Below are positions 1,472 to 35,281 of a stretch of 64,000 nt of DNA, piece after piece. The stretch comes from Candidatus Eiseniibacteriota bacterium (lineage in GTDB: Bacteria > Eisenbacteria > RBG-16-71-46 > CAVPCR01), in contig CAWGMA010000002.1 in the NCBI GenBank assembly GCA_963823555.1, forward strand, positions 352,001-416,000, read 5' to 3'. The position numbers were made by a program, and so were the translations under genes. A model generated the notes under the pieces. That model was not told where the DNA came from. It ran no database searches and worked only from the letters and a program-made list of their open reading frames with translations. Numbering within the stretch: the first letter of the stretch is position 1; the number at the start of each line of letters is the position of its first letter.

Positions 1472-2836
1472 TCACTTCGCCCGCTTTTCCAGCCCGTAGC
1501 GCTTGATCTTGTTGTAGACCGTCGCCCGGTCGACTTGCAGGATCTCGGCGGCGCGGCTGATGTTCCACTCGGTGCGATCGAGGATGTGCTGGATGTGCAG
1601 CTTCTCGACGTCGGCGAGGGAGTCGTGGCTCGTCGTCTCGGTGGTGCGTTCGAGCTGGAAGGGCAGGTCCTCGGGGCGGATCGCCGGCGACTTACCGATG
1701 ACCATGGCGCGCTCGATCGCGTTCGCGAGCTCGCGCACGTTTCCCGGCCAGTCGTAGCGCACGAGCACATCCATGGCATCGGGGCTGATCTCGGTGATCG
1801 GCCGGCTCGGCTGGGTCTGGAACCGGCGCAGGAAGTGCTGGGCGAGGACCGGGATGTCGCTGCGCCGCTCGCGGAGCGGCGGCAGGTAGATGCTGAAGAC
1901 GTTGATGCGATAGTAGAGGTCCTCACGGAACTCACCGGCCTCGACCATCTTCTCCAGGTTCTGGTTGGTGGCGCAGACCACGCGGAAGTCGGCGCGAATC
2001 GGCTTCGACCCGCCGAGGCGGGTGAACTCCTTGGTCTCGAGCACGCGCAGGAGGTCGACCTGCGTCTTCATCGAGATGGTCCCGATCTCGTCGAGGAACA
2101 GCGTGCCGCCGTCCGCCATCTCGATGCTGCCCTTGCGCCGGTACTGCGCGCCGGTGAAGGCACCCTTCTCGTGGCCGAACAGCTCGCTCTCGAGCAGGGT
2201 CTCGGGCAGTGCGCCGCAGTTGACGGGGACGATCGGGAAGTAGCGGCGGTTGCTGTTGGCGTGAATGGCGCGGGCGATGAGCTCCTTGCCGGTGCCGCTC
2301 TCGCCGCGAATGAGCACGGTGGCGTCCGTCTGCGCCACCGTGCGCACCATCTCGAGAACCTTCTGCATCTGCGGGCTCTCGCCCACGATCTCGTCCGCCT
2401 TCGACAGCTCCTCGATCTTCTCCCGGAGCTGGAGGTTCTCGCTCTTCAGCCGCCGCTGCTCGATCCCGTTGCGAATCAGGTGGCTGAGCTCGTCGGGGTC
2501 GATCGGCTTGGTCACGTAGTCGAACGCCCCCTGCTTGAGCGCCTGCACAGCGGTATCCACCGAGGCATAGGCCGTGATCATGATCACGATCATGCCCGGA
2601 TCGATCTCGCGGACACGCCCCAGGAGCTCCATGCCGTCCATCCCCGGCATCTTGATGTCGAGGAGGACGACGTCGTAGCTCCCATCCTGTAACCGCTTCA
2701 GGGCCTGAGCGGCGTTCTCCGCGGCCTCCACCTGGAAGCCGTCCTTGCGGAACCAGTTGAAGAGGGAATCACGCACCGAAAACTCGTCGTCCACGATGAG
2801 TATCGAGGCGGTCCCTTGCGCCTGTCCGATCGTCAT
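1472..2836 (-). CDS. Sigma-54-dependent response regulator (NtrC/AtoC family)
   Basis: Receiver (IVDDE, LLDIKMP), Walker A GESGTGKE, intact GAFTGA, FLDEI, WPGNVREL, C-terminal Fis-type HTH. Confidence 0.97.
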   Translation of the reverse strand: MTIGQAQGTASILIVDDEFSVRDSLFNWFRKDGFQVEAAENAAQALKRLQDGSYDVVLLDIKMPGMDGMELLGRVREIDPGMIVIMITAYASVDTAVQALKQGAFDYVTKPIDPDELSHLIRNGIEQRRLKSENLQLREKIEELSKADEIVGESPQMQKVLEMVRTVAQTDATVLIRGESGTGKELIARAIHANSNRRYFPIVPVNCGALPETLLESELFGHEKGAFTGAQYRRKGSIEMADGGTLFLDEIGTISMKTQVDLLRVLETKEFTRLGGSKPIRADFRVVCATNQNLEKMVEAGEFREDLYYRINVFSIYLPPLRERRSDIPVLAQHFLRRFQTQPSRPITEISPDAMDVLVRYDWPGNVRELANAIERAMVIGKSPAIRPEDLPFQLERTTETTSHDSLADVEKLHIQHILDRTEWNISRAAEILQVDRATVYNKIKRYGLEKRAK

Positions 2837-4542
2837 GGGTCACCTGCCCGTTCTGGTTCTTGCCCGTTGCCCCCGGTACCGGAGTCCTTGACCGCGGGCT
2901 GGCGCAGGAGATGGATGCGGAAAGTGGTGCCCTGACCGGTCTTCGAATCCACATCGATGCGCCCGCCGTGCCGCTGGATGATGCCGTAGACCACGGCCAG
3001 GCCGAGCCCGAGGCCGTTACCGCCCTCCTTCGTGGTGAAGAAGGGCTCGAAGATGTGCGGGAGAATGTCTTCCGGAATGCCGATGCCGGTATCCGCGATC
3101 TCGATCAGCACCTCGGCGGTCGAATCGGCGGCGGCCGGGCCCGCATCGCCGGCAGCCACCCGGACCGTGACCGTGCCTCCTTCGGGCATCGCTTCGACTG
3201 CGTTCACGAGGAGGGCCACCAGAGCCTGCTGGATCTGATCGGCATCGCACACGATCTGGTCGTCACCGGTGAATGGGGTCCGCTCGAGCCGCACGCCGGC
3301 CATCTGGATGTGATGATCGACGAGCATGAGGCTGCGATCGACGATCTCGTTGACATGATGCGGGGCGAAGCGAGCGCCCGTGTGCCGGGCGAAGAGAAGG
3401 AGGTTCTTCACGATCTGACCGCAGCGTCCGGACTCCTTCTGGATCAAGTTCAGGTAGCGCTTGAGCTCCGCACGCTCCTCAGGATCGATCTCTCTCTCCT
3501 CGAGCCCGCGCTCGACGAGGCGGGAATAGGTCAGGATCCCGGCCAGGGGGTTGTTGAGCTCGTGGGCCACGGTGGCCGAGAGCTTCCCGAGCGAGGCCAT
3601 CTTCTCCATGTGCAGGATGTGGCGCTGGGCCAGGCTCAGCTCCTTGGTCTTCTCGACGACCTTGCGCTCGAGGGTGTCCGACCACTCCGTGATCTCCTCC
3701 TGGGCGCGCTGCAGGTTCACGGTCATGCGGTTGAACGCCGTGGCCAGCTCGCCGACCTCGTCATCGGACTGGATTTCGACATGGGTCAGGAGATCGCCCT
3801 GGCTGATGCGCTTGGTACCGGCGATGAGCCGCTGCACCGGAACGCGCACCATGAAGTAGATGAATGCGGCCGAGACCGCGCCGATGAGGAGCGCCATGAA
3901 GAGCATGGCGGCGAGCATGCGGTGCTCGGCGGCCTTGAGCTGGGCGTCGGCCGTGGCGAGCGACATCTTGACGTCGAGCACGCCGAGGATGGTCTGCTCG
4001 GGACGATGCACGTGACACTTGGTGCACTCGGGCTCGTTCTCGATCGGGTTGATGAGCCCGAGAATGCGCTCACCATCGGCGCCGCGGTAGACACGAACGC
4101 GAGTGTCGGCGGGGACCGAGCGGAGCGGCTCCTTCTGGTCGTGACAGATGATGCAGGCCTCGGCCTGCATGTCGACCTGGTGCCCGACCTCGCTCGTGTC
4201 GGCGGAGACGATGATGGTGCCCTGCTTGTCGTAGATGCGAACCCCGGCGACACCCGGCAGCTTGCCCACGGTGGCGATGATCTCGCCGACATCGTCCTTG
4301 CGGTTGAGGAGCATCGCGTGCCGTGTCGAGCGCTTGAGGACCTCGCTGGCGCGGAAGGCGGCCTGGTGGACGAGCTGGCGCGAGTATTCGGAAGTGGTCC
4401 GGATGTTGGCGAGGGTGAAGGCGGCGAGGAGGACCACCATGGTCCCGAAGAGCCAGAGGAAGAGGCGAACGCTGAGCGAGCCCAGGGCCCTCTTGATGCC
4501 CGTCGGGCGCTGACTGGATCTGCGATCGCTTGCGGGCGGCAT
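2833..4542 (-). CDS. HAMP sensor histidine kinase with two periplasmic CxxCH heme-c motifs
   Basis: Two TM segments flanking CIICH and CTKCH; HAMP; H-box [34 protein letters not shown] overlap with the regulator. Confidence 0.95.
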
Positions 4543-22218: not shown

Positions 22219-22340
22219 ACCCCGCATCGGAGGAAGGACCTTGAGCGCCGCGTCCCGTTCCACCCCATTGTGCCGGACCTGGCGATGTGGAATCATCGCA
22301 GCTCAAGCTGCATCCGGCTCTGATTCGCGCAGGAGAGAGC

Positions 22341-23069
22341 ATGACGCCGAGCAGGACTACCTCCCGCAGAGCCGGAGGGCTCGCCGCCGACATCCGATCC
22401 TTCGTTCTCCGCAGACCGCCCATCCCAACGCTGATCAAGTTCGACACCGAGGAGGCGAGGGAGGACTACAGCCAGCGCATCGCCCAGCGCATCGGCATCG
22501 ACGTCACGCAGTACGCGATCCTGAACGTCCACCGGATCGGCATCGATGCGCCGGTCAGCCTCGTCTTCGAGGAGCTCCAGCGGTGGGATGGTCGGCCCTC
22601 CTACTGGCCGAATCGGATCGTGAGCGTCGAGCGGGCGCAGGGAAGGCGGGGACATCTGCAGTTCTTCCTGCTCGGCAAGAAGGACTCTCTCTTCGGGATC
22701 AGGAACAGGTCTCTCGGGTTCGACTTCATCCCGCTGTTCCTGATGGATGTCGTGGATGTGCGGCATCTGCCGGCCGAATCCAATTTCGACAACGCGCGAT
22801 ACGTCCTGTATGAATGCAGCGGTGGCTATCCGGTGGGGATCTGCGGCATCTACGTCCGCTCACCGATCGCGAATCTCGGTGAAACGGCGCGCGCCCAGAT
22901 GTTCTTTGCCGTCGGGTTCAACTTCTACGGGAAGAAGAACTGGCCCCGAAAGCACCTCGTCAATGGGATATGGGAAGCGATCCACAACCGGGTTACATCC
23001 AATGTGCTCAACCGGTTCAAGATCGAATGCGAAGAGAACTTTCGGAGAATACGGGACGAGTCAGATTGA
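22341..23069 (+). CDS. Hypothetical protein (possible SRPBCC-like fold)
   Basis: AGGAG RBS, coding-like sequence, 'IGIDAPVSLVFEEL' resembles an SRPBCC N-terminus. Confidence 0.6.
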   Translation: MTPSRTTSRRAGGLAADIRSFVLRRPPIPTLIKFDTEEAREDYSQRIAQRIGIDVTQYAILNVHRIGIDAPVSLVFEELQRWDGRPSYWPNRIVSVERAQGRRGHLQFFLLGKKDSLFGIRNRSLGFDFIPLFLMDVVDVRHLPAESNFDNARYVLYECSGGYPVGICGIYVRSPIANLGETARAQMFFAVGFNFYGKKNWPRKHLVNGIWEAIHNRVTSNVLNRFKIECEENFRRIRDESD

Positions 23070-23084
23070 CCCCCATACTCCGGC

Positions 23085-24887
23085 CTATTGCTCGCCGATG
23101 ACCGCCTTGAGGCGGGCGATTCTCGCGTTGACCTCGGGGATGGTGAGATCGTGGAAGCGCTCGGGGAGGAAGCGAGCGTCCGTGCATTCCTTGACGGCGA
23201 GCAGGTCCATGAGCTCGAGCCGCTCGGTGTGCGCCGAGGGGCGGATGTCCGTGATCACCTCGGCGATGACCTGCTCAAGCTCTCGCCGCGGCTCCCCCTC
23301 GGGCTGGGTCTCGTAGACGCGCAGGGCGCGGACGAGGATGCCCTCCATCTCGTTGCCGCCGATCTGGTCGTTGTCGGGAAGGGGGGGCAGGTCCGCGACA
23401 GCGATGGGCATCTTGAGCTTCCTCGCCATGGCGGCGAAGAGCTCCTTGCGGGCCTCGGGTGTTCCCGGCGGAAAGAGCGGGATGTGCACGTCGAGACGGC
23501 CCTGGCGCTTCAGGTCCACCTCGAGGAGATCGGGACGCGAGGTGGCGAAGATCCAGATGATCTTGCCGCGGTTCTGGGTGTCGCTCATCTCCCGCGCCAT
23601 CATGGCGTAGACGCGCCCGGAGAGCCCCGAGTCGCCCTCGCCTCCGCCGCCGCGCCGTCCCATGGCCTGGTCGGCCTCGTCGACGAAGACGATCACCTGG
23701 CCGAGCGCATGCAAGATCGAGAACACCTTTTCCAGGTTGCCCTCGGTGGCCCCGACCCACTTCTCGCGGAAGTTCTTGAGCTCGACACAGGGGATGCCGA
23801 TCTCGCCGGCCAGGCACTCGACGAGGTAGGTCTTGCCGGTTCCGATGCGGCCGGTGATGAGGTATCCCATCGGGATCGCGGCGCTCACGCCCTTCCGGAG
23901 CAGTACCGCGTCCTGGCGGAGCCAGGCCTTGGCCTCCTCGTGCCCGGCCACGTCGTCGAGCGTGCGCCTGGACTCGATGAAGTCGAGCCGCCCGAAGGCC
24001 TCCTTCTCGATCGTCTCCTTCTTGACGCGGGTCAGGTAGGCCCCGGTGAGTCGCTCTCGATCCGCCCGGGCGCGGAGGAGCAGCGTGCGCACGCTCACGC
24101 GCGACAGGCCCACCAGGCGCTCGCCGAGGACCGGAGCGCCGAACTCGCTGAGCACGCTCACATCGCCCAGGTCCCTGGTGAGGAAGGCAATGAAATCGCT
24201 GAGCTCGGCGGCGGTCGGGAGCTCGATCTTGATCTTGGCCGAGTATGGGCTCTCGACCAGCATGCGGTTGAGATCGGCGAGATTCTCGGTCAGGAGCGCT
24301 GTGACGGCGAAGGAGCTCGTGATTGCCGGATCGGAACCCCAGTCGATGAGCTGGATCAACGTCTGGCTCAGATCGGCGAGATACAAGGGGTCGCCCTGGG
24401 GGGCGATGAAGTGCGCGTAGTCGATGACCACCGCAACCCGGAGCGGATCGGCCACCGCCTTTCCGTCCACCACCCGGGTGCGGGCGAGCGCCCCGCGCAG
24501 GAAGCGGTCGATGAGCTCGAGCGCGCGCTTGGGATCGCGCGGCAGGAGACCGGAGAGGTCGAGCATCGCCGCCTTGTCCGGTCCGACCGCGGGCAGCGAG
24601 GACCAGCTCGTGCCCTCGAAGGCGTCGAAGGCCTTCAGGAAGCGCTGGAAAGTCTCGGCCCCCTTGAGGACGCGGATGCCCTTGCCGCGGTCGTAGTACA
24701 CCACGACCTCGAAGGGGTCGAACATGACTTCGGTCAAGAAGCGGCGGAGCGAGAGATAGTCCTCCCCGCCGGGGGCGGGTACGAGGTCGAAGATGTTGCC
24801 GTGGAGAATGAACTGGCTCGTCGTGCCGGCGCGGAAGATGGAGCGCATCTCCTCCGCCCACGGTGCCAGTTCGTGATCGCGTGTCAT
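23085..24887 (-). CDS. AAA+ ATPase (classic clade) with degenerate N-terminal AAA-like domain
   Basis: LDDVAG, Walker A GRIGTGKT, pore loop KWVGATE, Walker B VFVDEAD, SRH ATSRPDLLEVDLKRQGRLD. Confidence 0.92.
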   Translation of the reverse strand: MTRDHELAPWAEEMRSIFRAGTTSQFILHGNIFDLVPAPGGEDYLSLRRFLTEVMFDPFEVVVYYDRGKGIRVLKGAETFQRFLKAFDAFEGTSWSSLPAVGPDKAAMLDLSGLLPRDPKRALELIDRFLRGALARTRVVDGKAVADPLRVAVVIDYAHFIAPQGDPLYLADLSQTLIQLIDWGSDPAITSSFAVTALLTENLADLNRMLVESPYSAKIKIELPTAAELSDFIAFLTRDLGDVSVLSEFGAPVLGERLVGLSRVSVRTLLLRARADRERLTGAYLTRVKKETIEKEAFGRLDFIESRRTLDDVAGHEEAKAWLRQDAVLLRKGVSAAIPMGYLITGRIGTGKTYLVECLAGEIGIPCVELKNFREKWVGATEGNLEKVFSILHALGQVIVFVDEADQAMGRRGGGGEGDSGLSGRVYAMMAREMSDTQNRGKIIWIFATSRPDLLEVDLKRQGRLDVHIPLFPPGTPEARKELFAAMARKLKMPIAVADLPPLPDNDQIGGNEMEGILVRALRVYETQPEGEPRRELEQVIAEVITDIRPSAHTERLELMDLLAVKECTDARFLPERFHDLTIPEVNARIARLKAVIGEQ

Positions 24888-24890
24888 GGA

Positions 24891-25820
24891 CTAGGCCCTT
24901 TCCCGGCCCCGCCTGGGCGGCGGTGGAGGTGGCGATGGTTCCGGCTCGGCCGGGATGCGGGGCTCGCCGAGCCGCGGCAGGAGCGGACCGCCCTCACCCA
25001 GCTCGTCGCCAGCAAGCGTGCCGAAGATCTCCGCGTTCTGCTCCATCCAGCGCGATGTCTCGGCCAGGGTCTGACTCACGGCGTCGAGCCGTGCCGAGAG
25101 CACCTCGGGCCCGCCGGAAACCGCGGTCTCCTCGCGGATCAGGCGCACCTGCCGCTCGATGCGCTGGAGCTCGGCGTCGATCACCTCGAGGCTCGTTCCG
25201 GCCCGCTCGAGATTGGCGAGGCGCTTGGTCTGGATGTCGAGCGTGGCCTCGAGCGAGCGCGCGAGCGGGCTTCCTGCCGGAGCGGAGGCGAGTCGCGCCT
25301 TCAGCCCATCGATGTCCGCCGCGAGCATCTCCGGATCCACCTGCGCCAGGTTGGTGCGGATCACCTGCTGGGAGACGAGGAGGCGGAGGAAGAGCGCGAG
25401 CAAGCTGTTGAGACTGCCTGCGCGCAGGTCCTCGAGCGTGCCCGCCTCGTTCCGTTCGCGGGTGGGCGCGATACCGAGGATGAGCCCGCATTCGTTGAGG
25501 AGCCGGCGGTAGCGGGCGCGCGCCTCGGGGACCAGCTGCTCCAACGTCTCCTGCACGCGCTCGTCGGTGCCGCGCTGACGTCGAGCGAGGAGCTCGCCCT
25601 CGACGACCTTCTGGAAGCGCGGGTTCGCAGACAGCCAGCCGAGGTAGGACAGCTCAGCGGCCGCACCCAGGAGCCAGAAACCGGGATTAACGAGTCCGAG
25701 GACGCCAAAGGCGACGAGCCCCATCTGGTTGAGCGGCATCCGTCCGAGAAGCGGAATCGGATGCGGATGCCGGAAAGCGGCCTTGACGTAATCCCAGTAG
25801 GTCAGGGGCTGGTTCGCCAT
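24891..25820 (-). CDS. Hypothetical protein with N-terminal TM hairpin and long helical/coiled-coil region
   Basis: Hydrophobic hairpin (GLVAFGVLGLVNPGFWLLGAAAELSYLGWL), heptad-rich body, Pro-rich tail; co-oriented and closely spaced in operon. Confidence 0.75.
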   Translation of the reverse strand: MANQPLTYWDYVKAAFRHPHPIPLLGRMPLNQMGLVAFGVLGLVNPGFWLLGAAAELSYLGWLSANPRFQKVVEGELLARRQRGTDERVQETLEQLVPEARARYRRLLNECGLILGIAPTRERNEAGTLEDLRAGSLNSLLALFLRLLVSQQVIRTNLAQVDPEMLAADIDGLKARLASAPAGSPLARSLEATLDIQTKRLANLERAGTSLEVIDAELQRIERQVRLIREETAVSGGPEVLSARLDAVSQTLAETSRWMEQNAEIFGTLAGDELGEGGPLLPRLGEPRIPAEPEPSPPPPPPRRGRERA

Positions 25821-25826
25821 GGCTCG

Positions 25827-26678
25827 TCAGGTGGTGCCCGCCTCCAGGGCCCGGAACGCCGCCGCCACCTCGCCCACCGCCGCCTTGAAGCTCGACGTCT
25901 CCTGCACCAGGAGGGGATCCGAGTCGCGCGTCGGCGGGATGATGTCGGCGAACTCGTTGCCGATGCGGCCCGGAGCCGGGGTGATGATCCAGACCCGATC
26001 GCCCAGGTAGACCGCCTCGGCGATCGAGTGGGTGACGATGAAGACCGTGGCCTCGACCTCGTGCCAGAGCTCCATGATAAGCCGCTGCATCTCGTAGCGG
26101 GTAGGCTCATCGAGCGCCGAGAACGGCTCGTCCATCAAGAGGATCTTGGGCTTGAGCGCCAGCGCCCGGGCGATGGCCACCCGCTGTTGCTGCCCGCCGG
26201 AGAGCTGGTGCGGGTACTTCTTCTCGTGCTCGACGAGTCCCACTCGGTGCAACCAGTCGCGCGCGACATCCACCATGGCCGGCCGGCTGAGGCCGAGCTC
26301 GTGCTGGTTCAGCTCGAGTCCGAAGGTGACGTTCTCGAGGACGGTGCGCTGCGGGAACGAGCTGTACTTCTGGAAGATCATGCCGCGGTCGCGGCCCGGC
26401 CCGGTGACGATCCGCCCGCGCACGCGCACTTCTCCGGTGGTCGGCGGATAGACGTCATCAAAGCCGTGAATGAGATTCAGGATGGTGGACTTGCCGCAGC
26501 CGGAGGGCCCGACGATGGCGATGAACTCGCCGTAGCCTGGCCTGTCATCGACGCGGAAGGTCAGGTCCTTGATCGCGGTGAACGCGCGCGCGGTTCCCGG
26601 GTTGAAGGTCTTCGATACCGCCCGGAACTCGACGACCGGTTCGCTCGCAGCGGCGGGTGCGGCACCGGCGGCGGTCAT
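25827..26678 (-). CDS. ABC transporter ATPase (TauB/SsuB/NrtD family)
   Basis: GPSGCGKST, LSGGQQQR, LLMDEPFSALD, VTH; ATGA overlap with the permease. Confidence 0.95.
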   Translation of the reverse strand: MTAAGAAPAAASEPVVEFRAVSKTFNPGTARAFTAIKDLTFRVDDRPGYGEFIAIVGPSGCGKSTILNLIHGFDDVYPPTTGEVRVRGRIVTGPGRDRGMIFQKYSSFPQRTVLENVTFGLELNQHELGLSRPAMVDVARDWLHRVGLVEHEKKYPHQLSGGQQQRVAIARALALKPKILLMDEPFSALDEPTRYEMQRLIMELWHEVEATVFIVTHSIAEAVYLGDRVWIITPAPGRIGNEFADIIPPTRDSDPLLVQETSSFKAAVGEVAAAFRALEAGTT

Positions 26679-27541
26679 CGCCGCGACTCCTGCCATGGGA
26701 AGAGGCGGCTGCCGATCGCCGCCCACAGCTTGTCGGTGAGGAAGGCGACGCCGACGATGATCAGGAGCACCAGATAGATGTGCTCGCGCGGCCCGCGCCG
26801 CTGCGACGTGATGATGATCCCGCCCAGGCCCTTGCCGATGTCCACCATCTCGGCGAGCAGGATGTAGCTCCAGCCGACGCCGAACCCGAGCCGGAGCGCC
26901 TCGAAGATCCGGGGCCATGCCACCGGGAGCAGGACCTGGCGCACGGCCTGCGCGCGCGAGGCGCCGAGCGTGTAGGCGGTCTTCAAGTAGATGTCGTCCA
27001 CCGAGTCGACGGCGGCGACGATGAGCGGCAAGAGGTAGATGCCGAAGGCCAGCGCGAGAAAGACGACCTTCTGCAGCTCCCCGGTTCCGAACAGGCTCAA
27101 GGTGAGCGGGACCAGGGTGGGAATGGGCAGATAGGCCCCGAACACGGCGAGCGGCAGGAATGCCGACCGCACCTTGGTGAACGAGCCCATGAGGAGCCCG
27201 AGCGGGAACACGATGGCCACCGCGAGGAGAAAGCCCTCGCTCACCCTGAGGAAGGACACGAGGAGATTGCGCATGACGGCGCGATCGAACCACAGCCCGG
27301 GGAACGAGCGGACGACCTCCACCGGGCTCGGCAGGATGGTCGGCGAGATCATGCGGCTCTCGGGTTCGTCGCCGCCGGTGGCGGCGATCCACACCGCGAG
27401 GAGGACCGCCACCGGCATCACACCCAGGATCCAGGCGAGCCAGGGTGGGATGCGCTCGCGAATGCGGAGACCCCACTTGCCGGTGGCGGCAGTTCCCCCG
27501 CCGCTGGTTGCGGCCGCCTCCCGCTCGAGGCGGTCGGTCAC
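26675..27541 (-). CDS. ABC transporter permease (TauC/SsuC family)
   Basis: ILPSPVEV, multiple TM, EAA-like 'TAYTLGAS', 'GWSYILLAEM'. Confidence 0.93.
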   Translation of the reverse strand: MTDRLEREAAATSGGGTAATGKWGLRIRERIPPWLAWILGVMPVAVLLAVWIAATGGDEPESRMISPTILPSPVEVVRSFPGLWFDRAVMRNLLVSFLRVSEGFLLAVAIVFPLGLLMGSFTKVRSAFLPLAVFGAYLPIPTLVPLTLSLFGTGELQKVVFLALAFGIYLLPLIVAAVDSVDDIYLKTAYTLGASRAQAVRQVLLPVAWPRIFEALRLGFGVGWSYILLAEMVDIGKGLGGIIITSQRRGPREHIYLVLLIIVGVAFLTDKLWAAIGSRLFPWQESRR

Positions 27542-29271
27542 TGGGCCTCCGGCGGGTAGACCGCGATCTCCACTCGGCGGTTGAGCGCCTGGTTCAGGGG
27601 ATCATCGGGATCAGCCGGCTCGTCCCAGGCCTTGCCCTCGACCGCGAACTTGTCGGGCTCGAACTTGAACTTCTTGACGAGCGCCTGCTTCACGGCATTG
27701 GCCCGGTCGAGAGAGAGCTGCTGCACATCCTCGTAGCGCACCCCGCGCTCCCGCATCGAGGAGTCCGTATGGCCGAGGATCGCGATCACCGAGCGATCGT
27801 ACTGCCCGACCAGGCGGGCCACCTTCTCGAGCGTGGCGTCGATCGCGGGATCGTAGAGCGTGTTGGCCACCGCATTGCCCAGCTCGTCGTGCTGGGGCTC
27901 GTAGAGATTGGCCGAGTTCGGATAGAAGTTGATGCGGATGGTCTGGGTGACGATCGGCGCCTCGGCGGAGAGCTTCTTGTAGCTCGTCGGGACGAAGGCG
28001 GCGCGACCGGCGTCCGGCTGGTGCTTGAAGGCGCCTTCCTGGTCGAGCTGCTTCAAGACCGAGAAGTCCATCACCTCGTCGAAGCGGGCCGGGGTTCCGA
28101 TCAGCCCGAGCTCCCGGTAGACGAAGTTGATGTTCTTCCAGCTCCGCTCGAAGTTGGTCGGACTGTTGGCGTTGAGGAAGAAGTCCTTGTTCTCGGCGAA
28201 GTTGGTCGAATGGGCGTCCTGGACCATGCCACCGATCTCGTCGACCGGCATGCCGTAACCCTCGGCCATCCACTGGAAGGCCTTTGCCTTGAACGTGCCG
28301 TCGCCCAGTAGGTCCATGCCCTTGAAGATGCCCGCCACCAGGCCCTTCATGATCTCCGGGTGGTCCTTGGCGAAGTCGGCCCGTGCCGCCCACACGTCGG
28401 CGATCAGCTTGTTGGCCTCGGCGGTGGTGGTGAGGATGCGGGTGCCGGGGACCTTGTCCGGGATGTTGTAGATGTCGGGCGCCCACGACACGCAGGCATC
28501 GATCTTCTTGTCAGCGACGAAGGCCGCCGCCGCCTCGAAGGCTGTGGCCGTGTACTTGTGCTTCACGGTGGCGGGCTGGACGCCGGCGGCGAGCAGCAGA
28601 TTGTTGATGAAGTACTGGGAAGGGCTGTTCTGGGCGTAGACCACCGTCTTGCCCTTCAAGTCCCGCACCGATTCGATGCCGCCGCGGACGACGATGCCGT
28701 CGCCGCCGCTCGACCAGTCGATCTGCTGGTAGACGCGCGGCGCGGTGCGCGAATCCTTCATGAGGTCGGGCGCGAACAGCGCGATCATGTCGAGGGTGCC
28801 CCACAGGATGTGGCTCTCGCCGGCGGCGAAGGCGTCGCGCGCCACCACTGGATCGTCGACCAGCTTCAGATTCACCTTGAAGCCGTAGTCCTTGTAGAAG
28901 ACGGATTCGGTGTTGGGGGCGAAGCCGTGATTGGCCGCCACGATCGGCAGCCAGCCGATCCAGACGTTGATCGGGAACTGGACGATCTTCTCGCTGGCAT
29001 CCCACTTGTAATTGGAGACGCCCTTGACCGGCGGCAGCTTCTCGGCCGGCACGTAGGTGTACTCGTTGACCGTCGTGATGCCCTTGGTGTCCGGGGCCTC
29101 GACCTTGCCCGCCTGGTCCTTGTAGGCATCCAGGTCGATTTCCGACTGCCCCTCCTTGCCGGCGGGCAGGAGCGCATCGCGGAAGAAGTAGATGGCGCCG
29201 GCGATCAGGGCCAGGATGAAGAGCACGATCACCAGCCTGCCGAGGCCGGTGGGTCCCACCTTGTCCGCCAT
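27538..29271 (-). CDS. Membrane-anchored NMT1/SsuA-like solute-binding protein fused to an OmpA-like peptidoglycan-binding domain
   Basis: N-terminal TM; WIGWLP, DWSSGGDGIVVR, DLKGKTV, IADV; C-terminal GHTD...LSLDRANAVK...NRRVEI. Confidence 0.9.
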   Translation of the reverse strand: MADKVGPTGLGRLVIVLFILALIAGAIYFFRDALLPAGKEGQSEIDLDAYKDQAGKVEAPDTKGITTVNEYTYVPAEKLPPVKGVSNYKWDASEKIVQFPINVWIGWLPIVAANHGFAPNTESVFYKDYGFKVNLKLVDDPVVARDAFAAGESHILWGTLDMIALFAPDLMKDSRTAPRVYQQIDWSSGGDGIVVRGGIESVRDLKGKTVVYAQNSPSQYFINNLLLAAGVQPATVKHKYTATAFEAAAAFVADKKIDACVSWAPDIYNIPDKVPGTRILTTTAEANKLIADVWAARADFAKDHPEIMKGLVAGIFKGMDLLGDGTFKAKAFQWMAEGYGMPVDEIGGMVQDAHSTNFAENKDFFLNANSPTNFERSWKNINFVYRELGLIGTPARFDEVMDFSVLKQLDQEGAFKHQPDAGRAAFVPTSYKKLSAEAPIVTQTIRINFYPNSANLYEPQHDELGNAVANTLYDPAIDATLEKVARLVGQYDRSVIAILGHTDSSMRERGVRYEDVQQLSLDRANAVKQALVKKFKFEPDKFAVEGKAWDEPADPDDPLNQALNRRVEIAVYPPEAQ

Positions 29272-29315
29272 GTTTCAGTCTCCTTCCAGCGCAGCGTCCC
29301 CCGGAGGATGCCGCG

Positions 29316-30074
29316 TTACGACTCCTGGACCTGAGGGCCCATGTCCTTGGCCGGCGGTATCGAAGCCGGCCCCGCGGCGGTTCCTTCCGCCGGTGGCAGC
29401 TCGAGCCCGTAGCTCGCCGCAAACTCGGTGAGGGCTTGCTCGGCGAGTACCTGCTGCTCCGCTTCCATGAGCTCCACCTTGGAGGTGTCGATGGTGGTCG
29501 CGGCCACCCGGGTGCGGCCCGCCGCCTTGTCCCGCCGTTCCGTCAGGTATTCCTCGACGCGGTTCAACGTATCGCCGGAGCCGCCGATCGAGGTCACCAT
29601 GCCGGTGGCCATCTCCTGCAGCTCGGCCTGGGCCTCGAGCATCTCGGTCTCGGTGAGGAGGCGCTTCAGCTTCTCGATCTTGGCCTGCGCCTCCTTGACC
29701 GCCACATCGCGCGCCTGGACGAGCTTCTTGAAGGTCTCCTCGGCAGTCTGCAGCTGCGCGCGGTTCTCCTCGAGCTGCTCCTTCACGGTCTTGAGCTGGA
29801 GCGCGTACTGGGCGGCGGCGTTGCGGTTCCCTACCTTCAAGTTGGCCGCAGCCTTGGCCGCCAGGTCGCGCTCCTGCGCCTCGAGGTTCTTGACCTGGCG
29901 CAGGAGCCGTTCGGTGAAACCGGCATGCACGGCGAGATTGTCGTTGTAGCGGGCGATCTGCTGGCGCAGGTTTTCCTTCTCGACCTCGAGCAAGGCCCGG
30001 GGATTCTGGCGCTCGATGCCGGAGATGAAGAGGCCGACAAATCCCCGGATCAGGTTGGAAATGCGCATCCACAT
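29316..30074 (-). CDS. PspA/IM30 (Vipp1/ESCRT-III superfamily) protein
   Basis: N-terminal amphipathic helix MWMRISNLIRGFVGLFISGIE followed by NPRALLE, long coiled coils, C-terminal 'ALTEF'; AGGAG RBS. Confidence 0.88.
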   Translation of the reverse strand: MWMRISNLIRGFVGLFISGIERQNPRALLEVEKENLRQQIARYNDNLAVHAGFTERLLRQVKNLEAQERDLAAKAAANLKVGNRNAAAQYALQLKTVKEQLEENRAQLQTAEETFKKLVQARDVAVKEAQAKIEKLKRLLTETEMLEAQAELQEMATGMVTSIGGSGDTLNRVEEYLTERRDKAAGRTRVAATTIDTSKVELMEAEQQVLAEQALTEFAASYGLELPPAEGTAAGPASIPPAKDMGPQVQES

Positions 30075-30164
30075 GGCGGGCTCCTTTGCCGGGCTTTCCT
30101 GCCGGGAGCTCCTCGGCCGGATGGTGCCGGCAACTCGTACGAACCTGACTGCCGCGGGCGGCGG

Positions 30165-30194
30165 ATTATCCGCAGAGCCCCAAGGCAGTGTCAA
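30165..30194 (-). promoter_or_regulatory. Sigma-70-type promoter of the pspA-like operon
   Basis: TTGACA-N18-GATAAT about 90 nt upstream of ATG 30074. Confidence 0.6.
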
Positions 30195-30446: not shown

Positions 30447-32807
30447 CTAATGCAGCAAGAGCATCCTGCGCTGCGCCACTTCGCCGCCCACCTCGAGCCG
30501 ATAGAGGTAGATGCCGCTGGGCAAGGACGTGGCCCCATCGGTGCGACCGTCCCACTGGACCTCATGATTCCCGGCAGCGAGCGTCCCGCCCACGAGCCGC
30601 CGGACGAGCCGCCCGCTGACGTCGTAGATGTCGAGCCGTGCATCTCCCGCCTCGGGCAACGCGAACTCGATCCGCGTGCCGCCGCGGAAGGGATTCGGCT
30701 CGTTCTGGGCGAGAGCGAGCCGCACCGCGGGAGCGGCACCCGGGGAGACCGCGGTGGGCGAGCCCTGCACGGTGAGCACCGCGATGCCGCGGCTCAGGCA
30801 GCTCATCCACAGCTCGTAGCCGCCGGGGATCTCGCGCACCTCCAGGTCCTCGATGGAGCTGTGCGGCAGGCCGCCCCACTGCGGCTCGCCGCCGGGAGGC
30901 GCGGGGAATGAGCCGATGTTCGTCCCGTCATACCAGCACAGTCCCGCGTCGTTCGACGGGTACTCGCTGTCGTACTGCATCCACAGGCGACCATCCGGCG
31001 TGACCGCCATCGGACGCACGTGTTCGCCGGGGAAGGGCCAGCCCTGATCATGCTCGAACATCTGGTAGGAGCCCGTGTTGGCATCGAGACGGATCAGGGT
31101 GCTGCCGGTGCTCGTGAACTGCGTCCACGTTCCGATCCAGGCAATACCGTCGGGCTCGGTGGCAAGGCCAGTGAACCATGTCCCTGATCCGGGGAAGTCG
31201 CCGATGGAACGCGAGAAGGAGTAGGTCCCGTCGGTGCGCAGCAGCTCGTAGTCCGTTGCCGCCCACACGGTGCCTGGGCGTGTTGGGTCCCTCTGGATCT
31301 TGAGGCCCCATCCCGTGATCGGCGCTGAGGTCCAGCCGGTCCCGTCGTGATAATTGAGCGCGAAGTACTCCCCCAGAGCCCATAGTCGGCCGAGCGAATC
31401 CTCGCACATGCGCTCCGCGCCGCCCAGCGATGGGAGCGGGTTGAAGCCCGAGCCGGTCCACTCGTGGATCCCGTAGAGCCAGTCGAGCGGCGAGACCGCG
31501 ACGCGCCCATTGGAGGGTCGATAAGCAAGCGCGGTGCAGAAGTCGTTGGGGAACGGCCAGTCGTACCCGAGGCCATAGGTGAGCGGATTCCATCCCGTCC
31601 AGCGTGCCCCATCGAAACGCACCATCCCCCCGATTCCAGAACCGGCATTGGCCCCTGTGTACATGTAGCCGTTGACGGGGTCGATGGTCAGGTCGCGGTT
31701 GAACTGGTCGAAGTTGGCTGTGTTGGTGATGCGGTAGCGTTGCCACTGGCCGGTCTGCACATTCCATCTTGCCGCCCCTCCGGTCCCGCAAACCCAGACG
31801 TTCCCGGCGGCATCGATGTCCACGCTCTGGGTGTTCTGCCCCGGGCGCCAGATGCCCAGACCTACCCAGCTGGTGCCGTTGAACTGATAGACGGTGCCCA
31901 CGCCGTCGACGAGGAGTGCGCGGCGATCCCCATAGGCCTTGAAGGCCCAGGTGTCGAACGTCACGCCGTAGTAGGGCTCCGGGACCGTGACCCAGGTGCC
32001 ATCGGGCCGGCGGTAGTCCAAGGCGTTGAAGTCCCCGGGATTCCGGAGCCGGAGCGCCCAGAAGTTCCCGGCGTCGTCGACGCAGTCCTTCCCCGGCAGA
32101 CCGGCGACATCCCCGGGGCTGCCGTTGGGATAGGTGACATCAATCGTGGTCCACTGCTGGGTGTCGCTGTCGAAGATGAATGTGTAGCTCTGGAGCGGCG
32201 GCCTCTCGGACGACCACACCAGGTAGCCGCCGGTGGCCTTGGGCTGCACGCTCATGAACTCAGCGCCGACCTGCCAGCGAGTCCAGGCGTTGGTCCCCGG
32301 GTCGTGGCGCACGATCCCGCCGTTCACGAACCACATCGTGCCGTCCGGGGCGCGGTCGATGTCCGAGGTGAAATCGTTGATGAGGCCCGAATTGGCCGGG
32401 CCGAGACGGGTGAGCGAGCTGGCGCCGATGACGGGGTCGAACGTCAGCGCGCCGCGCCAGGTGCCGAGCCAGAGCTTGCCGGTCGCGTCGGGGACGATGT
32501 CTTCGACGCGCACGCACCCCTGCTCGTCGGGATGGCCGATGACCGGATAGTCTACGTTCGAGTAGTTGATCCAGCGGTTCTCCTCCTGGACGAACTTCGC
32601 AAAGCCGCCCTCCTCGAAGGAGGGATCGTAGCCGCCGATGTAGGGGTCGCCATCCGGTCCAACCCATAGCGCCTCGTTGAAGTCGCCCTGGATGCCGGTG
32701 TTGCCGGGGCGGTAGTAGCGCCAGGAGTAGGTCTCCTCGGCCCCGGCAGCACCAGCGGCAAGCCCCATGATCACGGCCGCGGCCGCCAATCCGTTCCTGA
32801 AGTCCAT
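30447..32807 (-). CDS. Secreted beta-propeller protein (Reg_prop-like repeats) with C-terminal FlgD-Ig domain
   Basis: Signal peptide; repeated D..G..W blades; QNEPNPF...YDVSGRLVRRL...WDG...SGIYLYRL; GGAGG RBS. Confidence 0.85.
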   Translation of the reverse strand: MDFRNGLAAAAVIMGLAAGAAGAEETYSWRYYRPGNTGIQGDFNEALWVGPDGDPYIGGYDPSFEEGGFAKFVQEENRWINYSNVDYPVIGHPDEQGCVRVEDIVPDATGKLWLGTWRGALTFDPVIGASSLTRLGPANSGLINDFTSDIDRAPDGTMWFVNGGIVRHDPGTNAWTRWQVGAEFMSVQPKATGGYLVWSSERPPLQSYTFIFDSDTQQWTTIDVTYPNGSPGDVAGLPGKDCVDDAGNFWALRLRNPGDFNALDYRRPDGTWVTVPEPYYGVTFDTWAFKAYGDRRALLVDGVGTVYQFNGTSWVGLGIWRPGQNTQSVDIDAAGNVWVCGTGGAARWNVQTGQWQRYRITNTANFDQFNRDLTIDPVNGYMYTGANAGSGIGGMVRFDGARWTGWNPLTYGLGYDWPFPNDFCTALAYRPSNGRVAVSPLDWLYGIHEWTGSGFNPLPSLGGAERMCEDSLGRLWALGEYFALNYHDGTGWTSAPITGWGLKIQRDPTRPGTVWAATDYELLRTDGTYSFSRSIGDFPGSGTWFTGLATEPDGIAWIGTWTQFTSTGSTLIRLDANTGSYQMFEHDQGWPFPGEHVRPMAVTPDGRLWMQYDSEYPSNDAGLCWYDGTNIGSFPAPPGGEPQWGGLPHSSIEDLEVREIPGGYELWMSCLSRGIAVLTVQGSPTAVSPGAAPAVRLALAQNEPNPFRGGTRIEFALPEAGDARLDIYDVSGRLVRRLVGGTLAAGNHEVQWDGRTDGATSLPSGIYLYRLEVGGEVAQRRMLLLH

Positions 32808-32876
32808 CGTGCACCTCCGCGTTCGGACAAGCATATCCTACCGACGGCGAGGCGGTGATCCGGATACAGCCGGGTA

Positions 32877-35163
32877 TCAGAAGCCCTGAGCGCCGCCCCG
32901 CGCCGGCAGGCGGTCGCGGAGCCTCTCCCGGAGGTGGGTGTGCCGCTCGTCCAGGCGGCTGTTCTTGACGGCGATGGCAAGCGCGCGCCGGCTGCCGGCC
33001 ACCACGCAGAGTCTCCGGGCGCGGGTGATCGCCGTGTAGAGGAGGTTCCGCTGCAGCATGACGTAGTGCTGGGTGTGCAGCGGAATCACCACCGCCGGAT
33101 ACTCGCTGCCCTGCGACTTGTGGATCGAGCAGGCGTAGCCGAGCACGAGCTCGTCGAGATCGGCATAGTCGTAGCGGACGACGCGCTCATCGAACCGCAC
33201 CTCGACTTCTCGCGTCGCGTCATCGATTCCCGCCACGCGCCCCAGATCGCCGTTCCAGACCTCGAGCTGGTAGTTGTTGCGGATCTGCATCACCTTGTCG
33301 CCGACCCGGAAGGTGCGGCGTGCCGCGGGTGATCGACTCGCCGCGCGGATTGAGGAGCGCCTGCAGCTCGGCGTTCAGGTTGGCGGCACCGAGGAGTCCG
33401 CGGTGCATGGGGGTCAGCACCTGGACATCAGCGACAGGATCGAGGCGGAAGCGCGCGGGGATTCGTTCGGCGACCAGGTGCTTCACCTTGGCGAGCACCG
33501 CTTCCGGGTCGTCTTCCGCGACCAGGAAGAAGTCGGGCGGCTTCTCCTCGGCGATACTCGTGCCGGTATCCGTCGCGACCGGACGCAGGAACGGCATCTC
33601 GCCATGGTTCACCCGGTGCGCGTTGACCACGATCAGGCTCGGCTCGGCCTGGCGGAAGATCTCGTCGAGCTTGACGGTATCCACCACTCCCGACTCGATC
33701 ACATCGCGGAGGACGGAGCCCGGGCCCACGGATGGGAGCTGATCCACGTCACCGACGAGGATCAGCTGGCAGTGGGTGGGCAGGGCCTTCATCACATGAT
33801 GGGCGAGCACCGTGTCCACCATCGAGGTCTCGTCGAGGACGAGCACATCGGCGTCGAGCGGGTGCTCCACGTTGCGCTCGAAGGACATGGATTTCGGTGT
33901 GAACTCGAGGAGTCGATGCACGGTCTTCGCTTCGCGACCGGTGGTCTCCCGCAGGCGCTGCGCGGCGCGGCCGGTGGGCGCGGCGAGGAGGATACGCCGC
34001 CCCTTGCGCTCGAGGATCTGGATGATCCCATTGACCAGCGTGGTCTTGCCGGTGCCCGGGCCGCCGGTGATGACGAGCACCTTGGCCGTCACGGCGCGCC
34101 GGATGGCATCGCGTTGCCTGGGGGCGAGCTCGATGGCGGCCCGTTCCTCGAACCAGGACAGCGCGCGCTCGATGTCGATCGCGATCGGCTTGACCGGGGC
34201 CTGCATCAGATGGGCGATGCGCTCGGCGATGCTCGTCTCGGCGATGTGAAGCGGGCGCAGGTAGACGCCGGTGTCGGGGACGCCGGGTGAGCTCGGTGGA
34301 TTGAGGGCGGCGATGGGCTCGAGGACGGCGGACCCGCTCGCTGCGAGCTCGTCGATCGCCGACTCCACGAGCGTGACGTCGATCTGGAGCATGCCGGCTG
34401 ATTCGGTCACGAGCTTCGGGCGCGGCGTGAACACGTGCCCCTCCTCGGCGAGCTCGCCCAGCACGTGCAGCACGCCGGCGGCGGCGCGGCGCGGGGAATC
34501 GAGCGGGATCCCGAGGCTCCCGGCGATGCGGTCCGCCGTCTTGAAGCCGATGCCGAAGATGTCGGTCGCGAGCCGGTACGGGTTCTCGCGCACGATCGCG
34601 ATCGCGTCGTCACCGTATCGCTTGTAGATCTTGACGGCGTAGCTCGGCGACACGGCGTGCGACTGGAGGAAGAGCATGACCTCCTTGATCTGGCGCTGCT
34701 CGGCCCAGGCCCGGGCGATGCGCTCGGTGCGCACCGGACCGATTCCCGGCACCTCCGTCAATCGCTCCGGCTCGCGGTCGATGACCTCCAGGGTCGCGAG
34801 CCCGAAGTGCTGGACCAGACGGCCGGCCATCACCTTGCCGATGCCGCGCACGAGGCCGGATCCCAGGTAGCGCTCGATGCCGACCAGCGTGGCCGGCTGG
34901 ACGGTGGTGAAGGACTCGACGCGGAACTGCTCGCCGTACTTGCGATCGCGTTCCCAGCGCCCCTCGAGTTCGAGGCTCTCGCCAGGCTGGACGCCGAGCA
35001 GGTTTCCGACTGCGGTTACCGGTTCACGCCGGCCGGGCACGGCGAGACGCACCACGGTCCAGGCGTTCTCCTCGTTGGCATAGACGATGCGATCGAGAAC
35101 GCCCTCGATCTTGCGCGCGTCGGTGCGCGGAGGTGGCGCAGGTGGTTTGATCACGGCATCCAT
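32877..35163 (-). CDS. recD2: RecD2-like ATP-dependent DNA helicase (one frameshift near 33318)
   Basis: YGEQF, VRGIG/VPGIG HhH, NPYRL..GIGFKTAD, GGPGTGKTT, APTGRAA, DETSMVD, GDVDQLPSVG, SIHKSQGSEY, YTAITRAR. Confidence 0.93.
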
Positions 35164-35281
35164 GGGCCGGCTCAGGCAGCCGGGAAGATCCAGGGGAACA
35201 GCAGGCGAGAATAGCGCGGGGGCCGGATCCATGCCATCATCCCCATACTCGACCTGTCAGGCCGACCGCAGGAGGTGAGGC

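Follow-up and report, generated by a model that had tools for sequence, protein, structure and literature searches.

How bacterial ESCRT-III polymers are dismantled is an open problem, and an operon that pairs one PspA with one AAA+ ATPase raises the question of whether such a pair could do it. We analysed this operon in a 64,000-nucleotide stretch (the window) of contig CAWGMA010000002.1 from a Candidatus Eiseniibacteriota bacterium, where a first-pass annotation made from the sequence had seen six co-oriented genes and proposed an envelope system resembling ESCRT-III and Vps4. All six open reading frames (ORFs) were confirmed on the minus strand (30074-23085); in order, they encode PspA, a solute-binding protein (SBP) joined to an OmpA-like domain, an ABC permease, an ABC ATPase, a membrane-hairpin protein and a tandem AAA+ ATPase. 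Judged from gene order across genomes, this is a real, strongly conserved unit and another copy of a type already described from genomes. We regard as evenly balanced the reading that its core is a membrane-repair unit in which the AAA+ ATPase recycles PspA polymers, Vps4-like in its working though not a Vps4.

The gene set and the ESCRT-III/Vps4 analogy were already published in 2024 and are not new here. Ravi et al. (PMC11237479, Table S3, OGG56892.1, Ca. Handelsmanbacteria) reported an identical six-gene order and domain content, proposed the same analogy and likewise described the ATPase as a separate bacterial two-module family with a dead and an active module. It is also there that the neighbourhood mentioned in the first-pass annotation, PspA/Snf7 next to AAA+ and ABC/OmpA genes, is found. 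Their operon comes from another genome, its Snf7 label was not reproduced here, and the likeness was judged by order and domains, not by sequence against OGG56892.1. Our additions are the division into core and accessory genes, a conserved motif in the PspA tail that could be targeted by mutation, and the existence of ATPase family members without pspA.

Conservation and layout of the operon

A genome scan with the AAA+ ATPase gave 197 confirmed relatives, of which the best 80, a choice biased to close kin, were examined as loci; the closest relative (89% identity) lies in a record labelled Ca. Eisenbacteria. The full six-gene set stood in the same order and on the same strand at 56 of the 80 loci, and at 55 of the 63 with at least 6.5 kb of upstream sequence. 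Record labels of the loci included Eisenbacteria, Krumholzibacteriota, Acidobacteriota, Gemmatimonadota, Fibrobacter, Clostridia, Gamma- and Deltaproteobacteria, and others. The first-pass annotation had made its proposal depend on the AAA+ and membrane genes accompanying pspA in other genomes and, since the genes form one conserved unit, this is what we found. Among the exceptions within the 63 loci, L020 and L059 belong to genomes that keep the other five genes together elsewhere, L038 has pspA and the SBP gene farther along the same contig, in L023 the membrane gene lies 8.9 kb ahead of the ATPase gene, at the edge of the contig, L081 is a divergent pspA-membrane gene-ATPase triad, and L076, L078 and L080 have no pspA near the ATPase gene.

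No flanking gene family was common to more than 4 loci, so the six-gene unit has sharp borders, and a conserved seventh gene in the six-gene type was rejected from the comparison of flanks. Median identity among relatives was 76% for the binding protein, 71% for the permease, 72% for the ABC ATPase and 75% for PspA. Across 121 genomes of the window's phylum, the AAA+ ATPase was present in 6, the membrane gene in 7 and any pspA match in 9, and all 6 ATPase genes had the membrane gene as their neighbour and pspA no farther than about 7 kb away. These genomes, as well as 151 considered below from the phylum of G001 (Acidobacteriota, going by the label of the L020 record), may overlap the 80 loci, and kin are not independent. 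Insertions of 0.6-8.9 kb separate the membrane gene from the ATPase gene in L008 (7143-9902), L011, L014, L017, L023, L053 and L057; they include a kinase-TPR gene and a PIN-domain gene.

The spacing from pspA to the AAA+ gene is 44, -4, -4, 6 and 3 nt. Both overlaps and the short gaps at the 3' end were present as first described, but the overlap between the SBP and permease genes reads GTGA and not ATGA, the permease start codon being GTG. A sigma-70-type promoter-like site (TTGACA-18-GATAAT, 30194-30165, minus strand) lies 91 nt 5' of the pspA start and agrees with the consensus at 11 of 12 positions, which bears out the near-consensus promoter noted earlier. The window holds 2 such sites against 1.2 ± 1.1 in shuffles, a count that by itself is within chance. 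In 15 of 55 relatives, a site of at least 10/12 recurred in the 250 nt preceding pspA (resampled controls: mean 0.55, maximum 3), and none was found upstream of 55 SBP, 52 membrane-protein and 74 ATPase genes.

Control by sigma-54 was rejected on the grounds that no sigma-54 motif occurred in the 55 relatives or in the window. The operon resembles the E. coli PspF-PspABC system in linking a PspA effector to an AAA+ protein and membrane partners, whereas PspF there is a sigma-54 activator and the operon here is sigma-70-type. As the first-pass annotation had stated for the E. coli partners, neither pspF nor pspC lies beside the operon; the window's genome has no PspF above the cut-off and carries PspC-domain genes only away from the operon, PspB not having been searched separately. 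No terminator-like site was found 3' of the ATPase gene, and the GC content of the operon matches the rest of the window. The pspA, SBP, permease, membrane and AAA+ genes each have one close copy in the window's genome (92.5% complete), in which pspA is the sole match to PF04012.

PspA and its conserved tail

The pspA gene (30074-29316, minus strand) encodes 252 residues and matches PF04012 over residues 2-220 at 38.5 bits against a cut-off of 33.9; by this match its product belongs to PspA/IM30 and thereby to the ESCRT-III superfamily. We call it a divergent member because the profile of its family found no solved PspA at E 1. The N-terminal helix is amphipathic (residues 2-19, hydrophobic moment 1.2), and the tail carries, after a variable linker, the motif [KR]x[ML]G[PL] in 56 of 57 sequences (shuffled mean 0.22); in the window protein it reads KDMGP (residues 243-247).

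A two-module AAA+ ATPase

The last gene of the operon (24887-23085, minus strand) encodes an AAA+ ATPase of 600 residues with PF00004 at residues 343-470. Its model (predicted local distance difference test, pLDDT, 89.3; predicted template-modelling score, pTM, 0.78) has two alpha/beta modules, helical lids and three C-terminal helices, and the C-terminus is conserved as well as helical. The first module (about residues 7-296) is degenerate, with LHGNIFDLV standing where Walker A would be and VVIDYA at the Walker B position, and a Walker A pattern was found in the first 290 residues of 1 of 110 family members. In the second module the motifs GRIGTGKT, KWVG (residues 376-379), VFVDEAD and KRQGRLD are intact; GRIGTGKT is its Walker A in 104 of the 110, and W377, G379, D403, E404, R461 and R464 are invariant. 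The KWVG loop had been pointed out in the first pass, and we take it to be the general pore loop of the classic clade, not a mark of Vps4. Aromatic pore loops of classic-clade AAA+ proteins thread substrates.

Membership of Vps4/CdvC, implied by the earlier description of the system as Vps4-like, was rejected because the protein has no MIT domain, has two AAA modules and ranks the CdvC profile low. The window ATPase scored 44 bits against CdvC, 7th of 11 profiles, compared with 71-76 bits for CDC48 and FtsH; for 8 homologues CdvC came 6th to 9th or was unlisted, behind CDC48 and FtsH, and CDC48 came first in 7, all far below the cut-off. No Ycf46 model was among the profile matches of the window ATPase or these homologues. 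The closest sequences of solved structure were VAT, Cdc48, p97 and Rix7, and Vps4 was absent among the best 60 of 266 PDB sequence matches. The Foldseek matches listed were all Rix7, Cdc48 or p97, in alignments of about 500-660 columns, and VIA-align superposed Rix7 7t0v over 469 residues (Z 22.0; root-mean-square deviation, rmsd, 7.1), the modules aligning over residues 7-563, and the N-terminal half, modelled as an alpha/beta AAA module, matched D1 of Rix7/p97 from residue 7 onwards. With the second module, VIA-align gave Vps4 6bmf (Z 21.8, rmsd 3.3, 270 residues) and spastin (Z 22.0, 274 residues). Because Vps4, spastin, p97 and proteasome ATPases tie here at Z 20.6-22, the second module alone cannot separate Vps4 from its relatives, whereas the whole chain can. 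The features that this module shares with Vps4/CdvC, namely Walker A/B, the aromatic pore loop and arginine fingers, are not diagnostic.

The tandem modules recall the D1-D2 arrangement of Cdc48, p97, VAT and Rix7, but the window ATPase differs from these in having a catalytically dead first module and no N-domain: no Cdc48 N-domain was found, and the chain begins with the first AAA module. Together with a score of 71.1 bits for the CDC48 profile TIGR01243 against a cut-off of 802.65, this led us to reject Cdc48/p97 membership as well. On profile scores and predicted fold, the ATPase is a separate bacterial two-module family, neither Vps4 nor Cdc48.

At the level of the operon, the likeness to ESCRT-III/Vps4 and CdvB/CdvC lies in an ESCRT-III-superfamily protein encoded with a classic-clade AAA+ protein; the differences are the lack of MIT, two AAA modules against one, and the coupled ABC transporter. 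The available portion of one archaeal study (PMC10936438) describes a Vps4-like group that also lacks MIT and ESCRT loci that in some cases include a ProX binding protein. For bacteria, a 2025 review states, in the portion available, that a Vps4-like ATPase appears absent (PMC7619361), and a structural study from 2024 points, in its accessible text, to chaperones or PspF for the turnover of rods (PMC11746142).

The membrane-hairpin protein

The membrane gene (25820-24891, minus strand) encodes a coiled-coil/helical-bundle protein of 309 residues without a Pfam family, which has 1568 relatives at 50% clustering. Its model (pLDDT 85.1) consists of an N-terminal helix, a short beta hairpin, a hydrophobic helical hairpin, a long bundle and a disordered proline-rich tail. 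The first-pass annotation had assigned it two transmembrane segments; the model agrees, with two hydrophobic helices forming the hairpin (residues 30-42 and 47-65), but hydropathy gave only one clear segment (residues 33-51).

Ravi et al. 2024 (PMC11237479) label this protein 'SIG+TM+Snf7', which makes Snf7 a candidate family for it. Snf7 (PF03357) had no match anywhere in the window's genome at E 10 and was not among the best 25 families listed for 142 close and 130 diverse relatives of the protein, and hhalign of the protein against the PspA family gave probabilities of 2.1% and 0.8%. Asgard ESCRT-IIIB 9ftl aligned at Z 7.4 (rmsd 5.2, 105 residues, rank 39), which is within helical-bundle noise. 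Fold searches gave no clear relative (Foldseek best E 0.084; VIA best Z 10.2, wide search 9.4), matches to BAR domains and designed bundles were treated as generic, and profile searches of solved structures returned coiled-coil noise only.

The nearest named Atlas cluster was that of Rv2743c (score 0.87, 181 of 256 features, family on 40% of members); the PspM profile PF25587 did not match the membrane gene even at E 10. Mycobacterial PspA forms complexes with Rv2743c, according to the available portion of PMC7619361. The mycobacterial PspA-PspM pair (Rv2744c-Rv2743c) resembles the operon studied here in joining PspA to a membrane partner of two helices, in the present case those of the modelled hairpin; neither an ATPase nor a transporter is given for the mycobacterial operons in print. 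Topology, constant presence with pspA and this mycobacterial precedent point to a role of the hairpin protein as a putative anchor.

A MIM2-like tail was rejected as a family feature of the membrane protein. The pattern hydrophobic-P-x-hydrophobic-P was present in 86 of the 142 close relatives (shuffled mean 5.2) and in 5 of the 130 diverse ones (shuffled maximum 5), and a relaxed full MIM2 consensus, drawn from the available part of PMC5840170, in 12 and 0, respectively. The window protein reads LPRLG at this position.

The predicted wall-tethered transporter

The SBP-OmpA gene (29271-27538, minus strand, 577 residues) matches NMT1 and OmpA, both above the Pfam cut-off. Its product comprises an N-terminal membrane anchor (12-30), a binding domain of the NMT1/SsuA/TauA type and a C-terminal OmpA-like peptidoglycan-binding domain with the motifs GHTD at 500, LSLDRA and NRRVE; the nearest solved relatives are SsuA/TauA for the former domain and Omp38 and PomB for the latter. 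Given the N-terminal membrane segment and the OmpA-like domain, the protein is predicted to be wall-tethered and would span from the inner membrane to the peptidoglycan. The permease (27541-26675, minus strand, 288 residues; BPD_transp_1, TauC/SsuC-like, 6 hydrophobic segments, GTG start) and the ABC ATPase (26678-25827, minus strand, 283 residues; ABC_tran, TauB/NtrCD-like; Walker A, LSGGQ, Walker B and H-loop all intact) belong to the taurine/sulfonate/nitrate class, with all scores below equivalog cut-offs. As far as domains and motifs tell, a binding protein, a permease and an ATPase with intact motifs make this an importer of the TauABC/SsuABC type. The accessible main text of Popp et al. 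2022 (PMC9239133) does not mention OmpA or NMT1.

A likely three-gene core

Several loci do without the transporter. L081 and L100 consist of pspA, the membrane gene and the ATPase gene; L088 and L089 have the same triad with an extra gene in front; L091 is of this extra-gene type and reaches the contig edge after the membrane gene; and in L061 and L104 pspA is followed by the ATPase gene with neither transporter nor membrane gene between. In the rearranged L090 and L098 the membrane gene is still directly before the ATPase gene, and L101, which has a divergent ATPase, keeps the full gene order. Since the transporter is missing from divergent versions that retain the other three genes, the likely core is the triad of pspA, membrane protein and ATPase, to which the wall-tethered transporter is likely a frequent, old addition. 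In L090 the binding protein (1930-3021, minus strand, G123:C31) has SBP_bac_3 and LysM instead of NMT1 and OmpA, a swap which points to the need for a wall tether more strongly than to a single fixed ligand.

The ATPase tree places L081, L088 and L089 on deep branches and mixes phyla; it was built from 31 selected members of the family with a single, very long outgroup, its long branches meet, and it does not establish the root or the order of events. An unnamed gene of about 210-280 residues adjoins pspA in six loci (L091:6353-7021, L088:4812-5570, L089:9452-10147, L090:3866-4714, L098 and L101:2906-3544). Its copies are mutually homologous, and no copy was found in the window's genome.

Proposed mechanism and alternatives

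If the ATPase recycles PspA, the cycle might run as follows. PspA would polymerise, as expected from its family, and the hairpin protein would anchor the polymers on the inner membrane in the role that PspM or PspBC has elsewhere. A hexamer of the ATPase would grip the conserved PspA tail through its dead first ring or its C-terminal helices, thread the tail through the KWVG loop and pull subunits from the polymer through its pore; gene linkage makes PspA the predicted substrate. The ABC importer, probably accessory, with its predicted wall-tied binding protein may deliver a solute or a signal where the envelope is damaged. Action of the ATPase on PspA would mean that a two-ring AAA motor was recruited convergently to ESCRT-III, and the three-gene versions L081 and L100 offer a minimal set for reconstitution. 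No experimental study of the six-gene operon was found in the open literature, subscription journals being mostly outside the coverage.

A number of results weigh against PspA recycling. No MIT domain was matched in the window ATPase (E 0.01) or in 10 homologues (E 0.1), which leaves recognition of PspA by the ATPase without a ready explanation. Many PspA systems work without such an ATPase, and, according to the available text of PMC11746142, PspA itself hydrolyses ATP. The ATPase was present in 30 of the 151 Acidobacteriota genomes, and just 16 of these 30 ATPase genes lay within 8 kb of a Pfam pspA match, or 17 with G192, whose pspA was missed by Pfam. Of 10 regions inspected among the 30 (7 unlinked, 3 linked), 6 had no pspA, membrane, SBP or permease gene. 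The incomplete genomes G005 and G126 carry the ATPase with no PF04012 match. In G001 and G003 its gene is separated from the remaining five, and pspA is not annotated in the vicinity of either of the two megaplasmid relatives inspected (about 30% identity). Such stand-alone copies argue against an ATPase strictly dedicated to pspA. In the same Acidobacteriota sample, linkage followed the ATPase score, with 13 of 18 high-scoring and 3 of 12 divergent copies near pspA, and some pspA match was present in 26 of the 30 ATPase genomes versus 48 of 151 overall.

Two settings of the pspA-free copies were seen. L094:5986-7608 and L095:4677-6308 are ATPase relatives (about 30%) on Paenibacillaceae megaplasmids, near DUF262 and NrnB genes. 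At L076:8585-11629 a GntR regulator and a Band_7 (SPFH) gene precede the ATPase gene in a genome without a PF04012 match, and the ATPase family may there serve another membrane scaffold.

It is possible, if unlikely, that the ATPase is instead a membrane-protein extractase in the style of Cdc48/p97, with the hairpin protein as its adaptor and PspA merely sealing the membrane beside it; the substrates would be inner-membrane proteins that are damaged or jammed, or else the hairpin protein. VAT, Cdc48, p97 and Rix7, as the nearest sequences and folds, fit such a role, and so do the position of the membrane gene directly before the ATPase gene even where pspA has moved (L090, L098), the copy behind the Band_7 gene and the stand-alone copies. 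However, pspA lies directly beside the ATPase gene without the membrane gene in L061 and L104, and where the operon is split, as in G001 and G003, it is pspA and not the ATPase gene that the membrane gene accompanies. We rate as rather improbable a transport-centred operon, in which an importer of the sulfonate/taurine/nitrate class takes up an osmolyte or an envelope breakdown product and PspA, the membrane protein and the ATPase serve as its assembly and membrane-protection crew. The transporter proteins are as conserved as PspA, their motifs are intact and SsuA/TauA are the nearest solved relatives of the binding protein, but the triad occurs without the transporter and the L090 binding protein comes from another family (SBP_bac_3 with LysM).

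A mobile anti-phage or anti-toxin cassette, whose wall-tethered protein senses a breach of the envelope to which the PspA/ATPase unit responds, appears very improbable. Its patchy spread (6 of 121 genomes in the phylum), the mixing of phyla in the tree and a weak ATPase match to IetA/IteA models would suit it; the IetA matches, however, cover the generic AAA core and score 21-29 bits against an NCBIfam cut-off of 510, no PADLOC match was found for 4 of 5 scanned proteins, GC is like that of the window and no mobile or defence neighbour is conserved. Finally, the parts could be joined in a bolder reading that we also hold to be improbable, namely a complete and independently built bacterial ESCRT-III pathway. 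Here the hairpin protein would act as another ESCRT-III subunit, anchored in the membrane and nucleating PspA. The two-ring ATPase would take the part of Vps4 and recognise the PspA tail through its dead first ring. The binding protein, fixed between inner membrane and peptidoglycan like MotB, would make the ABC unit a sensor of envelope separation that triggers the cycle. If this were true, the same wall tether would have been invented a second time in the SBP_bac_3-LysM protein of L090.

Neighbouring genes

Downstream, an ORF of 260 residues (22287-23069, plus strand) converges on the AAA+ gene, with the two stops about 15-16 nt apart; it had no Pfam or NCBIfam match. The upstream neighbour (30447-32834, minus strand) encodes a propeller protein with a FlgD-like C-terminal domain. 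Beyond it lies a gene for a RecD2-like helicase (33220-35232, minus strand), the C-terminal part of which seemingly continues in another frame (32877-33293), so that the gene may be frameshifted.

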